The translations under genes were made by a program, and so were the position numbers. The notes beneath the pieces were generated by a model that was given only the letters and a program-made list of their open reading frames with translations, searched no databases and was not told where the DNA came from. A DNA stretch of 64,000 nucleotides from assembly GCA_951406725.2 (NCBI GenBank), contig OX597826.1, forward strand, positions 15,438,001 through 15,502,000, read 5' to 3'. Of this stretch, positions 1,640-58,445 are shown in pieces. Source of the stretch: Octopus vulgaris (lineage: Eukaryota). Numbering within the stretch: position 1 is the first letter of the stretch; every line of letters begins with the position of its first letter.

Positions 1640-2010
1640 TTGTCGCGTGGAAGGTGTTTATAAGCCATTTAAGAAACACATAAAAACTGTTAAATTCACT
1701 TCAACATTTAAATTTAATTTGTCAAAATATTTTCGTCGCTTTGAGACCGCGACCAGTTCACTGACAAAACTCCGTACTGCATTTGTCAGTGAACAGGTCG
1801 CGGTCTCAAAGCGACGAAAATATTTTGACAAATTAAATCTAAATGTTGAAGTGAATCTAACGGCTTTTGTGTGTTTCTTAAATGGCTTATAAACACCTTC
1901 CATGCTGCAATTGTTTTCGTTCCAGTACATGATCTCAGACCAAGTCACTCGCTCTGCAAGTACATCTCCGTGATTTTTCATCATTATTCTGCGAAAAATA
2001 CAATATATAT
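1640..2010. mobile_element. Penelope-like element terminal repeat (pLTR) remnant in inverted, fold-back configuration
   Basis: Arms ~1640-1768 and ~1782-1910 are near-perfect reverse complements. The right arm runs on to ~1990 and matches a dispersed copy at 58222-58445. Each arm carries a hammerhead-like motif and the element ends near a TA run. Confidence 0.7.
1782..1832 (+). ncRNA. Minimal type-I hammerhead ribozyme-like motif, G3-C8 core variant
   Basis: tttgtca GTGAACA g gtcgc ggtctcaaa gcgac GAA AATATT T tgacaaa: 7-bp helix I, 5-bp helix II, palindromic AATATT helix III, UUU triplet, one extra G before helix II. Confidence 0.55.
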
Positions 2011-2899
2011 ATGTTGCAGTAAAACCTAGCATAAAACAACAAGAGCTGCAGTAGAGATGATGAGGCACACTCACGCACACGCACACACAAACACACACAC
2101 ACACACACACTCACACATTTTATGATTTAGTGAGTGGAGAAAGCATAGTGCCTCGAAATTTGAAATCCTTTCTTGTCTTTCATGACTGGTGAAATAATGA
2201 CAGAAAGTTACCTTCTGATGAGAGATATGGCCTGAATGCTTGTATCGGAATGGATTTCGGTAAAATACCCTCGATGGAATTAAGCGGAACTACCAATCAA
2301 AAACAGGAACGATATTTCCAACGAGATTTTGTACGGACAAGTTTACTTGCCAAGTGCCATTCACGAGGAACAAAGCACTTGCTTCAGCTGTTTTACAGTG
2401 GAATCAATTCCGGAACCACCTTGTTAACTTCTTAACTATATGTGAATATCCACTGCGATAATATGAACACAACACAGCTGTTGCAATAAAGCCAGGACGC
2501 TAGTTGTCGAGGCTTAGAAGGAAATATTCACCAATCTCTTAAAAATAGCTGCCAACAATATCTCAAATCACCACCTATTCCTAGAAAATAAAATTTAATC
2601 GAACTGGATAATGTCGTTCAGACGTGAGAATTCTCTGGGGTGAGGAAGGAGAAGAAGCTCGCAACCGGAATACTTTTGATCGTTCATCTGCTCAATTAGC
2701 ACCGGCTTTAGACTTAATAAGACCACAATTTAGAACAGAGGCACAGAGACTAGAAGTCAACAACAAAAAAAAAACAAACAGATACAATAATCCACCGTTA
2801 TCAGCAGCAACAATCAATGGACATAATAACAGCAACAAGTACAATAGGCATAACAATGCAGGAATGCCAGCAGCTACGAGAATAGATTTCACAACACTG

Positions 2900-3500
2900 C
2901 AAACATGGCGTGGAAAATAGAGATAACAACACAGCAATAATAGAAGTAACAAGAAGAAAATATATAATAGTTCAATAAACGTAAGAATTTGAATACATTT
3001 ACCAACACAAAATCTGCAGTAACAGCAACAATAGTAACAAGAACAGATTATAGCAGTTGCATCAAGGACAATAGACATAGCACAACAATAGCAACTAGAG
3101 CAACAGATATTAACAAGAGTAATAAGGAATAGCAGCACAACTTCAATACAACAGCAACAATAATGAAATCCAAACTACAATTATGTCAACCACAACGGAG
3201 TTAAGAATTTATATATAACAATGCAGTAACAAATACGAAACCATTAACAGTTGCAACGAAAAAACATGGCATTACAAGAGTAAGAATAAGATTAAAAGCT
3301 TTATAACACAAGGGTAGGGTTGGGGTTAGGGTTAGGGTTAGGGAACAATACACAAGGCATACCAATGGCAACTAAAAGAAACAACACTAACAACAAGACC
3401 AATAGACACATCACAACAATAGCAACTTGAACAGCAATAAACAGTAGAAAAAGGAAGAGGCATAACAACGCGCTAACAACAGTATCAAAAGGAAAACACT
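2900..3500. repeat. Low-complexity AAC/AGC-rich region with internal degenerate duplications
   Basis: caatagaca..cacaacaatagcaact occurs at ~3069 and ~3400. Confidence 0.6.
3311..3343 (+). repeat. Short interstitial telomere-like (TTAGGG)n
   Basis: agggtagggttggggttagggttagggttaggg. Confidence 0.75.
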
Positions 3501-3522
3501 TGTTACATCAGCATCAAACAGC

Positions 3523-3881
3523 GTGGAGGCGCAATGACCCAATGGTTAGGGCAGCGGACTCGCGGTCGGAGGATTGCGGTTTCGATTCCCAGACCGGGCG
3601 TTGTGTGTGTTTATTGAGCGAAAACGCCTAAAGCTCCATGATGCTCCGGCAGTGGGTGGTGGCGACCCCTGTTGTACTCTTTCGCTACAACTTTCTCTCA
3701 CTCTTTCTTGCTGTTTCTTGTCCCCGACTTCCTACGCAACCGCTGAGCCTGGATGCGTATTCATCCATCCGTCGGTGCTCTCGATGTCGGGGGTTGACCT
3801 GCTTCTTCTTCTGCGGGTCTTACGAATAGCTAAGGACCACGTTTCGGACTTCTCCCACTGGGCGAAGACCGCTACGCTCAA
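3523..3881 (+). mobile_element. tRNA-derived SINE, family A, tail type 1
   Basis: A-box-like tgacccaatggttagg and B-box-like gtttcgattcc; 14-bp TSD cagcatcaaacagc at 3509-3522 and 3882-3895; head shared with the copies at 13194 and 22716. Confidence 0.9.
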
Positions 3882-4299
3882 CAGCATCAAACAGCAACAA
3901 CATTAGGTATAACGCAACGTGAATAAGAATCGGAGTTAACAAAATGCAGCGTGAAGAAAAACAGTATCAATATAAACAATACAGAAGAAAACAACAACAA
4001 CAAAACCGTTAATAAAGAGAACAATCGGCAAAATAATGAATCAACAACAATGACAAGATGAACAATAAACGACAATGGTTTATTTTCTTATTATAATGAC
4101 AATAGTTACATGAGTATCAACAAAAACAATTACAATTAATATTTTAGTTTAACTTTAGTAGCCTCCTAGTCTTACTTTAATTGTTTTGGAAAACTTAAAA
4201 TAAGAAACACAATCAAGAAATAACAGTATGGACATTGTAATAGTAGAATACAAAAATAAAATATTTTGAGCGATGGTTATCAACTATCTTAGTCTATCA

Positions 4300-55725: not shown

Positions 55726-56651
55726 ATATATATATATATATATATATATATATATATATATATATATATATATAATATATATATAATATATATATATATA
55801 TATATATATACATATTCTATACTGTTCTCTAAAAATGTATGGCTAATGTCACTGAAAAAAGCATGTATGATTGCATTGGAAATATCACTTCTCATCCATA
55901 GCCGGTGTTTGTCACGCGTAGATGACAGGTTACTACCCAGAAATTCGGGTCCATGTGTATTACGTCAGACTAGAGATGGGAACGATGATTTCCCTTTGCA
56001 AATACGGATAGGGCACAGACAGTGTGTCATCAGCCAGCTGGAGGAGATGTCTTCCAGGGGCTATAATCTGTAGTAGCATCGTCTCATATGGGTCAGCCAT
56101 ATTTAGGTGGCAAATACACTTCACGGTGTATATATAATTATATACATATATATGTACATAAATAATTAATTAATAAGGGTGAGAGAATTAGATACTAATT
56201 TAATAGTATACCTATTCAACACCAAGTGGCCCAGTGCCCCGAGAAACCTGGATTATTATAATATTTTATAACATATTATAATATTTTATACAAAAATAAA
56301 TATAAGAGAGTGGTCACTATGTGGCTCACTCTAGCACTAGTAATAGATCCAATAGGTTTCAACCACAAAAATACATGTTTCCCATGAAAGTCAGTACGAT
56401 TGTTAGCTCACACGAACAGGGCAAATAAAAAATAACAAAAATACAGATTATTTTGGGACAATTGTTTCGCTATTTATGTACATAAATATATATCCATATA
56501 TATATGCACATAAATATATATCCATATATACATGTATATACATACACATATACACATATATACACACATATATTGATACATATGTATATGTATATATATA
56601 TATATATATATATATATATATATAAAGATATACACATACACACACATATAA

Positions 56652-57040
56652 GGCGCAGGAGAGGCTGTGTGGTAAGTAGCTTGTTTACCAACCACATGGT
56701 TACGGGTACAGTCCCACTGCGTGGCACCTTGGGCAAGTGTCTTCTACTATAGCCTCGGGCCGACCAAAGCTTTCTGAGTGGATTTGGTAGACGGAAACGG
56801 AAAAGAAGCCCGTCGTATATATGTACATAGGTATGCGTGTGTGTGTTTGTGTGTCTGTGTTTGTCCCCCTAGCATTGCTAGTGTGTTTATGTCCCCGTTA
56901 CTTAGCGGTTCGGTAAAACAGACTGATAGAATAAGTACTGGGCTTACAAAAGAATAAGTCTCGGGGTCGAGTTGCTCGATTAAAGGCGGTACTCCAGCAT
57001 GGCCGCAGTCAAATGACTGAAACAAGTAAAAGAGTAAAAG
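56652..57040 (+). mobile_element. SINE family C, full length
   Basis: Matches 47293-47735. Confidence 0.92.
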
Positions 57041-57232
57041 ATATATATATATATAGATATATATATATGGGTGTGAGTGATTGTGTATAGAAGAATATAT
57101 TAATAAAAAGAATTCCAACCTTGTCTGATTTTCACGTTTTATTTACAATCTTATAATGATATATTATAAGATAATATATTATAATTGAATAAAATAAAAT
57201 GAAATAGTAGAATGTTAAATGTTCATTCTGAT

Positions 57233-57277
57233 TGAACTAGTACTTTCATGCATTGAATTCTGCAATCTTCGGGTTCA
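57233..57277 (-). ncRNA. Minimal hammerhead-like motif (U4C substitution)
   Basis: Minus strand reads tgaac CCGAAGA ttgca gaattcaa tgcat GAA AGTACT A gttca; palindromic AGTACT, CUA triplet. Confidence 0.65.
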
Positions 57278-58221
57278 TGTAGTAGTGTTGACAGTCATGC
57301 TTCACAATTTTTGACTGTAGCAAGACGATTGATTCTGTGCTATAAATACAGCTGGGTAGGCTCCAGAGTGCTAGGTTTTGCAAACTGTATTCTGACCAAT
57401 CAGTGTGTAGTATCACTCAATTACTTAAGCTGATTGGTTGGTTGAGCTGATTGGTTTAGGCATCACGCTTTGTTGGACATGTCAAGAGTCCTGTATCTTG
57501 ACCCTGGCCGAAGCAGCAATTGTTGGGTTATTTTTAGAAATGTTGTAAATATCCTTTGTCAGAGATTTTTATATTTTTATATTTCAATTGTCATCATCAT
57601 CATTGTCAGCACCTTAATTATTGTTGCTAGTGGTGATGGTGGTGGCAATAGAACTTTTAACCCTAAATAAGATAATTTTCCTGCTATCTTCATCTTGATC
57701 ACCTTTAGTATTGTTGTTGTTGTTAGTGGTCATGGTCGTAGCAGTGGAAGTAATACCTCTAAGTATTATTATTATTGCTTATTTAGCTTGGGTTCGAATT
57801 TATCAATAAAATTCTTTTCTCTGATTCTCCTCTCGATTTCACTTGGGCTGTGTAATTTGTGGAACGGAAATATTATACACATTTTCCGGCCACATGTTGC
57901 TAGGTGGTTACTCAAAGGTATCTCAAAGGTATATATATATATATATATATATATATAGAGAGAGAGAGAGAGAGGGAGAAACTATTAAAGGTGAAACAAT
58001 ATACAAGTGAAACCGTTTATTACTTAGTCCGTCGAAGGTTTCACTTCCATTCTTTGTGTTTTGAGACGTAATAAGGAACCAGTGCCAATGTTGCATTGTT
58101 TTAATCCAAAAGAATTACATGTTCACACTTACGGGGTCTCATAGTATTACCTTGTGAAATTTGATTTGATGTGGTTGAGCCAGACAGAACTACAAAGGAT
58201 TTTATATATACATATATATAT

Positions 58222-58445
58222 AGATAATGAAATAATTATTACGGAGATGTACTTGCATAGCGAGTGACTTGGTTTGAGATCGTGTGCTGGAACGGAAACA
58301 ATTGTAGCGTGAAAGGTGTTTATAAGCCATTTAAGAAACACACAAAACTGTTAGATTCACTTCAACATTTAAATTTAATTTGTCAAAATATTTTCGTCGC
58401 TTTGAGACTGCGACCCGTTCACTGACAAAACTTCGTGCTGCATCT
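58222..58445 (-). mobile_element. Non-inverted copy of the Penelope-type repeat at 1640-2010
   Basis: High identity over ~200 bp; hammerhead-like motif at 58379-58429 (GTGAACG). Confidence 0.8.

Follow-up and report, generated by a model that had tools for sequence, protein, structure and literature searches.

The general system considered here, self-cutting motifs carried by Penelope-like elements (PLEs), is already known. Lünse, Weinberg and Breaker are said to have described, in 2017, ~150,000 small PLE-associated hammerhead variants with a shrunken helix III and cleavage as dimers.

The closest described motifs are the minimal hammerheads of metazoan PLE pseudo-LTRs (Cervera and De la Peña 2014, PMC4209133). 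In the available text of that paper they resemble those analysed here in their type-I layout, palindromic helix III and extra nucleotide after A9, in forming many unrelated families per genome, mostly as single truncated copies and with opposite-strand pairs, and in the U3-A8 core of Schistosoma Cercyon (~1,300 matches) and the activity predicted for dimers. The core variants of Perreault et al. 2011 likewise include, in the text available, natural U3-A8, a 2-bp helix II, a U10.1-U11.1 mismatch and a viroid U4C (PMC3088659), each of which also occurs among the motifs analysed here. According to the same portions of these two papers, U3-A8 covariation and extreme within-genome hammerhead diversity are already published. 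In contrast to our findings, U3-A8 is the sole 3-8 variant in that text of PMC3088659, and the family-fixed G3-C8, A3-U8, U3·G8, U4C and A9C found here go unmentioned in that of PMC4209133, whose searched supplement file does not mention cephalopods either.

Neither a cephalopod hammerhead survey nor a natural G3-C8 or A3-U8 core turned up in our literature search, and the alignments of Lünse 2017 may already contain the present families or G3-C8 cores; the G3-C8 found in the literature is a laboratory double mutant (PMC11167929, PMC3884650). The main text of a 2026 octopus repeat annotation contains neither 'ribozyme' nor 'hammerhead'. A family-wide G3-C8 swap in thousands of copies, as described below, may be unreported. 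What hammerheads do for PLEs is treated as an open question in the available text of PMC8557442 and in PMC11167929, where a lizard PLE hammerhead cleaved only with the PLE protein and was partially rescued by C3G/G8C.

Hammerhead motifs in the window

The window is the whole stretch of Octopus vulgaris DNA that was analysed (64 kb). A preliminary description had placed at least six sequence-unrelated hammerhead segments in it, two of the listed sites being weaker. On re-reading, the five main motifs had the coordinates, cores, palindromes and NUH triplets described. The motif at 1782..1832 (plus strand) has a G3-C8 core (GUGAACA at 1789-1795), the palindrome AAUAUU, an extra G after A9, a 5-bp helix II and a predicted cut after U1825. 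That at 49862..49900 (plus strand) has a U3-A8 core (UUGAAAA at 49869-49875), the palindrome ACCGGU and the NUH triplet GUC with a predicted cut after C49894; its helix II is only 2 bp, and one additional U separates helix I from the core. At 57233..57277 (minus strand), C3-G8 is combined with U4C (CCGAAGA; palindrome AGUACU; predicted cut after A57238). The canonical CUGAAGA core occurs at 9421..9487 (minus strand; palindrome ACGAUCGU; predicted cut after A9426), within an element at 9286-9500 with no linked ORF, and, with a long helix II, at 34821..34912 (plus strand; palindrome ACGAUUGU; predicted cut after A34905). Given that these last two motifs have CAUGAAACGAUYGUA in common, they may not be unrelated, and to that extent the description needs amending.

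Both weaker sites changed on inspection. The one at 13861 is a 5'-clipped copy from a CUGAAGA family (13866..13923, plus strand; 9-nt near-palindrome ACUCAGAGU; U17 at 13918), carried by an element that extends to ~14018 and has no linked ORF. The one placed at 29186 truly spans 29169..29256 (plus strand) and belongs to an old CUGANGA family, with 75-88% identity among copies; the window copy has lost G5 (core CUCAGGA), while its relatives are mostly CUGANGA with position 7 variable. The type-I order (helix I, core, helix II, GAAA, helix III, NUH, helix I) is followed by the motifs, and helix III is palindromic or nearly so in 7/7. Four families have a canonical CUGANGA core, the other three GUGAACA, UUGAAAA and mostly CCGAAGA.

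A descriptor with Watson-Crick 3-8 pairing matched exactly the five main motifs, against a mean of 0.23 (maximum 1) in 60 local dinucleotide shuffles, although it was composed after the claim was known, with thresholds set on seen data, and is partly fitted to these five. With non-Watson-Crick 3-8 it gave one match, against 0.53 in shuffles. The identification of PLE-type minimal type-I hammerhead motifs is supported.

All seven sites are members of high-copy repeat families, with each motif lying 40-190 nt ahead of a fixed 3' end; the window copies are truncated insertions, and decay is evident in 3/8 (the inverted arm at 1646 and the copies at 29169 and 58204). The proposed association with (TA)n holds at 5/7 sites, where (TA)6+ lies 38-170 nt downstream of the predicted cut, but not at 1782 or 29186, and (TA)6+ is found by chance within 250 nt of 21% of random positions. 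At the family level, (TA)4+ follows the element end in 29/29, 13/30 and 12/29 copies in three copy samples. The repeat finder was swamped by microsatellites in this window.

A G3-C8 family and its Penelope-like carrier

The G3-C8 family has 6,694 exact matches and the C3-G8 version of the same sequence none. Among 118 copies, G3 was present in 118 and C8 in 114; subfamily-level changes affected 5/9 columns of loop II, compared with 0/10 in the core, 0/14 in helix I and 0/6 in helix III, and G5, A6, G12-A14 and U16.1-H17 were unchanging. This supports the earlier proposal that variant 3-8 cores are fixed in whole families and are not copy decay.

The window copy at 1770..1974 (plus strand) is a 5'-truncated PLE pseudo-LTR, the 3' end of an element that in long copies has an ORF ending ~1.0 kb upstream. 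It abuts an inverted partial copy at 1646..1769 (minus strand), which lacks the last ~60 nt (the tail) and has its own motif with A9 decayed; A9 is also decayed in the core of a second family copy at 58204..58445 (minus strand). A PLE ORF, comprising reverse transcriptase (RT) and GIY-YIG, lies upstream of the motif in 3/3 loci. The palindrome at 1782 was considered as a MITE and this was ruled out: the inverted arm is of variable length and missing from many copies, and long copies reach the PLE ORF. A defined short G3-C8 element was similarly ruled out, as long copies lead to an autonomous parent. Overall, at least three of the short elements that had been taken as independent belong to autonomous PLEs of 4-4.6 kb, of which they are the truncated 3' ends.

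The carrier protein has no Pfam match, while a homologue matches RT and GIY-YIG weakly and the motifs of the carrier can be aligned with the U4C-family protein. Its GIY-YIG is C-terminal, not N-terminal to the RT as in Naiad/Chlamys, and it departs from Hydra, which is defined by no fingers insertion, no CCHH and a length of <3 kb. The carrier group has a long A-B insertion and His/Cys motifs, with a sister unit of ~4.6 kb holding a 1,311-residue frame; RT motifs A and B are ~130 residues apart in the carrier versus ~64 in the Neptune-like family. The longer A-B interval together with a C-terminal endonuclease sets it apart from Neptune-clade PLEs as described in the available text of PMC8557442 and, judged from protein sequence, appears to fit no clade in the definitions compared there. 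In the supplement of Craig 2021, three DNA motifs and the protein motifs of the lineage were looked for and not found, a weak result as long sequence runs are shortened in that file. A protein-atlas search with a homologue gave RT/GIY-YIG clusters and no clade name.

A C3-G8 family of this genome, with a homologous helix II, groups as sister to the carrier (98/100). Of the first 100 listed of 3,758 matches in that family, only 3 have neither C nor a derived U at position 9.

U3-A8 and U4C families in Neptune-like elements

The U3-A8 motif lies in a 5'-truncated Neptune-like PLE at 49368..50014 (plus strand), in which a GIY-YIG remnant (E 0.0033, below the gathering score) runs to 49752 and is followed by the 3' UTR/pseudo-LTR and an end at (TA)n; RT ORFs were found for the family. 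The U4C motif lies in a 5'-truncated copy (57095..57923, minus strand; 98.7% identical; GIY-YIG C-terminus at 57775-57923) of a young Neptune-like PLE that has two ORFs and a tandem unit of 4,271 bp, and whose protein matches Pfam RVT_1 and GIY-YIG at E 2.3e-6 and 2.7e-5. With the G3-C8 family, these make 3/7 families in which the motif has a PLE terminal-repeat location on the sense strand; 4/7 are without a linked ORF.

U4C is present in 75 of the first 100 listed of 1,571 matches. Its dismissal as mere CpG decay or noise was unsupported: at the places common to the two listings, CUGAAGA copies had only the older flanking marker. Contigs of guessed type cover the U4C element and are uninformative on RNA ends or cleavage.

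As read from the proteins, both carriers have a CX2-5CxxC linker ahead of a C-terminal GIY-YIG with CCHH. They resemble Neptune, as set by description in the available text of PMC8557442, in these two features, in an optional ORF1, in tandem and inverted copies and in (TA)n targets. The traits of endonuclease-bearing PLEs are present, namely partial tandem and inverted 5'-truncated copies, a terminal tail and microsatellite targets.

The 3-8 pair across the genome and relatives

In 100 stretches of 10 kb (1 Mb) outside the window in the same genome, the descriptor found 27 matches per Mb against 3.2 in shuffles, so the motif density is not special to the window. The 3-8 pair was Watson-Crick in 23 of these 27 matches (13 C-G, 5 G-C and 5 U-A), 10 of the 23 thus not being C-G. 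Using a search that left 3-8 pairing free, we also examined 33 3' regions, taken from metagenome contigs, behind ORFs related to the G3-C8 carrier. Thirteen had a motif, against none in antisense and a shuffle mean of 0.17, and all 13 were Watson-Crick at 3-8 (9 C-G, 2 U-A and 2 A-U); the other 20, some short and several redundant, had none.

These sequence comparisons support covariation of the 3-8 pair across families, as had been proposed. Pairing is mostly Watson-Crick, as expected from that proposal, but is not strict: 12 of the first 100 listed of 472 matches in the U3-A8 family form a U3·G8 subfamily. Searches based on CUGANGA, which is the descriptor in the available supplement of Cervera 2014, would indeed miss the variants.

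Predicted dimers, cleavage and copy ends

A double-hammerhead dimer was the cofold minimum for the 57233 and 34821 motifs. The G3-C8 dimer was predicted to be less stable than two monomers (-25.4 versus -27.6 kcal/mol), and that of U3-A8 did not form helix II and was 6 kcal/mol less favourable than the cofold minimum. For the five motifs computed, the helix III duplex alone ranged from -0.2 (G3-C8) to -10.0 kcal/mol.

H17, the nucleotide before the predicted cut, is missing in only 23/1,789 and 118/8,088 copies. At 1.3-1.5%, which is at or below copy divergence, there is no excess of copies beginning at the predicted cut site; as very few copies are without H17, copies would stem from uncut RNA. 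Several results point to weak activity and would argue against strong cleavage: U4C, A9C and U3·G8 in successful lineages, the weak predicted G3-C8 dimer and the copy starts. The spread of core-harming changes could reflect either a loss of catalysis or its tuning.

Interpretation

We favour, with a probability of about 0.72, the reading that the seven sites are minimal type-I hammerheads in PLE terminal repeats, likely slow, dimer- or protein-dependent self-cutters in which the 3-8 pair has been selected while its letters swapped. Tandem PLE transcripts would bring two motifs together; helix III would form between their palindromes, and the RNA would be trimmed, late or rarely, by cleavage after NUH. 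Reverse transcription would use uncut RNA and begin downstream of the motif, so that a template with a fast ribozyme in its 3' repeat would be cut in two; we propose that weak cores (G3-C8, U3-A8, U3·G8, U4C, A9C) are favoured for this reason. The solitary copies in the window are probably inert remnants.

A bolder version, which we hold only tentatively and consider less probable than not being so, is that the carrier represents an undescribed, widespread PLE lineage with all four Watson-Crick 3-8 pairs and recurrent A9C at one orthologous site, and that PLEs are selected for a slow, protein-triggered ribozyme. Its fingers insertion plus C-terminal GIY-YIG would fit no described clade, a U17/A17 background would never give G3 an inhibitory C17, and U4C and the U3·G8 wobble intermediate in other successful families could also point to deliberate slowness. 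If true, it would make matched natural pairs available for testing the purpose of PLE hammerheads.

Natural test pairs exist in the G3-C8 family and its C3-G8/A9C sister, in the subfamilies with U4 and with C4 of a single element that is young and intact, and in U3-A8 and U3·G8. Should the variants cleave, all four 3-8 pairs would enter the natural hammerhead consensus, and searches for CUGANGA would be overlooking thousands of copies in each genome; should they be inactive, retroelements would be able to lose catalysis, yet retain the fold and still be successful.

This second outcome is what would be expected if the fold were retained for a role other than cutting, for instance palindrome-mediated RNA dimerisation or binding of the PLE protein, with the variant-core families no longer cleaving. 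We regard this as unlikely, although U4C, A9C and U3·G8 occur in lineages that multiplied, copies show no excess of starts at the cut site, and insertion of the lizard PLE in vitro was insensitive to core mutants, with no RNA-seq reads ending at the cut site (PMC11167929); Craig 2021 also raised, in the available text, that hammerheads are possibly dispensable or parasitic (PMC8557442). Yet 3-8 is a catalytic-core contact that stays Watson-Crick in every related motif, with three letter pairs, and the fixed G5, A6, G12-A14 and U16.1-H17 are unneeded for a simple dimerisation signal. That the variant motifs arose in AT-rich repeats by chance resemblance or by decay of individual copies is largely refuted: the descriptor was fitted to the claim, three of eight window copies are decayed, and no hammerhead family is among the Rfam matches listed for the window (150 of 358), those being microsatellite-driven miRNA matches, but against this stand the family fixation of G3 and C8, the orthologous canonical motifs in relatives and the enrichment outside the window.

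The remaining alternative concerns the four families (9421, 34821, 13861 and 29186) near which no convincing PLE ORF was found in ~3-kb flanks. Under the favoured reading they are likely also PLE terminal repeats; it is improbable that they are instead non-autonomous retrozyme- or SINE-like elements, spreading via short, perhaps circular, RNAs with PLE enzymes. An origin of retrozymes from PLE repeats has been proposed (bioRxiv 10.64898/2026.07.22.740005, available text), and in most sampled copies of the 9421 and 13861 families the common sequence stops ~0-40 nt upstream of helix I, a boundary comparison that is biased towards short copies as queries started near the motif and at differing distances from it. 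The G3-C8 family had the same short look, yet its autonomous parent was found, and copies contain inverted partial duplicates, as in PLE insertions. Retrozyme-like families, as first suggested, would be marked by short head-to-tail arrays of non-coding units, each with one hammerhead; none were seen in the window, nor any ribozyme-bearing tandem array among the repeats listed for it (150 of 160). The tandem units found are coding and 4.0-4.6 kb long, and the window copies are dispersed, single or inverted. One locus of the 29186 family has a Neptune-like remnant, outside the expected place.

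Hammerhead motifs in the window and across the genome

Re-reading of the window sequence confirmed the positions of the five main minimal type-I hammerhead motifs in the preliminary description: 1782-1832 (+), 9421-9487 (−), 34821-34912 (+), 49862-49900 (+) and 57233-57277 (−). Two sites listed there as weaker, at 13861 and 29186, are also hammerhead copies, although they proved to be damaged members of families with the canonical CUGANGA core, and the second truly spans 29169-29256. The observation of diverse motifs with covarying 3-8 core pairs was therefore borne out; its interpretation, as compensatory evolution across many families, was supported in part only.

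Using a descriptor that specifies, in order, helix I, N-Y-G-A-N-N-A, helix II, GAAA, a palindrome, U-H and helix I, we recovered exactly the five main motifs from the window (36% G+C, with abundant microsatellites throughout) when positions 3 and 8 formed a Watson-Crick pair, versus 0.23 over 60 shuffles. Non-pairing 3-8 combinations gave 1 match, versus 0.53 in shuffles. As the descriptor was composed after the motifs were known, we repeated the scan on 100 segments of 10 kb each, placed at round coordinates along the chromosomes, requiring U at position 4. This yielded 27 matches compared with 3.2 in shuffles (n = 5). Positions 3 and 8 pair in 23 of them: 13 C-G (~8 sequence types), 5 G-C (a single family) and 5 U-A (three families), with no A-U among the 27. 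The other 4 are unpaired, two being one place counted twice. The window is thus a typical sample of this genome.

Core variants are fixed by family

Searching the genome (2.8 Gb, 227 contigs), we found that the repeat at every window site has about 900-2,200 first-look candidate copies. For the family of the 1782-1832 motif (GUGAACA, G3-C8), exact-pattern searching gave 6,694 matches genome-wide and none for the identical context with C3-G8. Among 118 distinct copies, G3 was present in all and C8 in 114. Common variants occurred in 5/9 loop II columns, 6/83 flank columns and 2/10 helix II columns (both CpG transitions), and in no core, helix I or helix III column, in an alignment mildly biased toward motif conservation by a query that contained the motif.

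The context of the 49862-49900 motif (UUGAAAA, U3-A8) had 472 matches, the first 100 listed comprising 85 UUGAAAA, 12 UUGAAGA and 3 others. Copies with UUGAAGA (for example, G000:C1:72978364 and 72981501) always share the same two flanking markers, indicating that U3·G8 is a subfamily; this wobble could represent a step between C3-G8 and U3-A8, in either direction. The 57233-57277 context (CCGAAGA, U4C) had 1,571 matches, with 75 CCGAAGA, 22 CUGAAGA and 3 others among the first 100 listed. At places common to two match listings, the older flanking marker is the only one present in U4 copies, and U4C therefore seems to be the derived state in what is now the youngest lineage, whose top copies are 99-100% identical.

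Penelope-like elements carry the variant motifs

The U4C family constitutes the terminal repeat of a Penelope-like element (PLE) whose 4,271-bp tandem unit encodes a 775-residue reverse transcriptase (RT)/GIY-YIG frame, preceded by a frame of 454 codons; the window copy is the last 829 bp of this unit. A young, intact two-ORF PLE (L191:2385-5980, −) is a good candidate for biochemistry, and the ~90-nt overlap of its frames suggests a frameshift. The U3-A8 motif lies 3′ of a GIY-YIG remnant in the window and 3′ of RT frames in family copies. By motif match only, both carriers resemble Neptune in their CX2-5CxxC linker (Craig et al. 2021, PMC8557442).

Long G3-C8 copies contain an RT frame with C-terminal GIY-YIG, then ~1 kb of (CATA)n-rich UTR, then the motif (3/3 loci in one check). 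Most copies begin within about 25-45 nt upstream of helix I, often after an inverted partial copy, and a 24-mer further upstream is retained in 786 matches versus 6,694 at the core. The common 5′ stop, which could reflect either transcription initiation or RT drop-off, adjoins the (CATA)n-rich UTR. For the families at 9421, 13861, 29169 and 34821, the 3-kb flanks gave no convincing link to an ORF; like the PLE families, these repeats end at a fixed 3′ position and occur with inverted partial copies.

Relatives of the G3-C8 carrier

The G3-C8 carrier protein has 22 long homologues (26-44% identity), and a profile built from these retrieved 80 metagenome loci, 33 of which extend 150 nt or more beyond the ORF. 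Without requiring 3-8 pairing, and at thresholds chosen after an earlier look at the data, 13 of these 33 regions had a sense-strand motif 120-390 nt past the ORF; the antisense strand had none and 200 shuffles averaged 0.17. Since several of these loci are closely related, neither the 33 nor the 13 represent independent observations. The 3-8 pair forms in all 13 motifs (9 C-G, 2 U-A, 2 A-U); nine of them carry U and four carry A at position 17, and C9 occurs once. The A3-U8 cores (AUGAAUA) lie 3′ of related ORFs on two metagenome contigs (L404 and L436).

A sister family in this genome (L452, G000:C19:14371000-14376700; 1,311-residue frame, ~4.6-kb tandem unit) is 55% identical to the G3-C8 carrier over 513 residues. 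Its hammerhead is C3-G8 with C9, and its helix II is homologous to that of the G3-C8 family. It had 3,758 matches, the first 100 listed including 91 CUGAUGC and 3 with A9. The A9C change, which reduces hammerhead activity, is fixed in the L452-L454 terminal repeat and recurs in a metagenome relative (L369). A 23-protein tree recovers this family as the sister of the G3-C8 carrier (98/100); the more weakly supported group around them (83/93) contains C3-G8 and U3-A8 carriers. Given this position and the homologous motifs in relatives, G3-C8 is best read, from sequence comparison, as a derived double substitution.

Proposed working of the motifs

The palindromes of two motifs could pair to form a double hammerhead. 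This predicted dimer is the minimum for the 57233 and 34821 motifs, 2.6 kcal/mol above it for 9421, and 5-6 kcal/mol above it for G3-C8 and U3-A8; for G3-C8 it is also less stable than two monomers. Insertions end 40-190 nt past the predicted cut, and the H17 base preceding the cut is absent in only 23/1,789 U4C-family and 118/8,088 G3-C8-family copies, so the genomic copies were made from RNA that had stayed uncut at this point. This agrees with Frangieh et al. 2024 (PMC11167929). In the PLE described there, reverse transcription initiates at an internal site 3′ of the hammerhead, and cleavage by the ribozyme requires the PLE protein; single mutants are partly rescued by G3-C8, and inactivated mutants show normal insertion in vitro. 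In a rival reading, the hammerhead fold would be retained without catalysis; our main inference is that the motifs are slow, conditional predicted ribozymes, for which selection would suffice to keep the 3-8 pair and would not favour, perhaps even oppose, speed. U4C reduces hammerhead activity in vitro (PMC3088659). G3-C8 performs worse with C17 (Kalweit and Hammann, PMC3884650), making the U17/A17 background of this lineage a plausible permissive factor.

Comparison with known systems

Minimal hammerheads in PLE repeats, highly diverse within one genome and of low activity as dimers, were described by Cervera and De la Peña in 2014 (PMC4209133), together with a U3-A8 variant present in about 1,300 copies. 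Natural U3-A8, a 2-bp helix II and U10.1-U11.1 were described by Perreault et al. 2011 (PMC3088659). Literature searches, which covered neither Lünse et al. (2017), Arkhipova et al. (2017) and figures nor one Cervera supplement file, yielded no cephalopod hammerhead survey and no natural example of G3-C8 or A3-U8. The system itself is known; among its family-fixed core variants, one or two may be unreported, and the variant-core families offer useful natural test pairs.

In the G3-C8 carrier, RT motifs A and B are separated by ~130 residues, double the Neptune-like distance, and the endonuclease is C-terminal. Craig et al. 2021 (PMC8557442) place the fingers insertion in clades whose endonuclease is N-terminal and state that Hydra lacks it. 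Judged by eye, this combination matches none of the clade definitions consulted there, a lead, drawn from these definitions, that the carrier may fall outside those clades.

Other repeats in the window

The 13861 family has additional partial copies, inverted in part, at 37806-38037 and 30461-30582. A LINE 3′ remnant with a zf-RVT domain (E = 4e-8) occupies 51543-52499 (+), and two related reading-frame remnants at 29328-29753 and 30705-31127 (+), without a useful Pfam match, resemble RTE-type LINE ends by eye. An abundant SINE-like repeat of ~200 nt has about ten window copies, including 47290-47526, 56651-56864, 20168-20370, 60649-60816 and 61971-62170.
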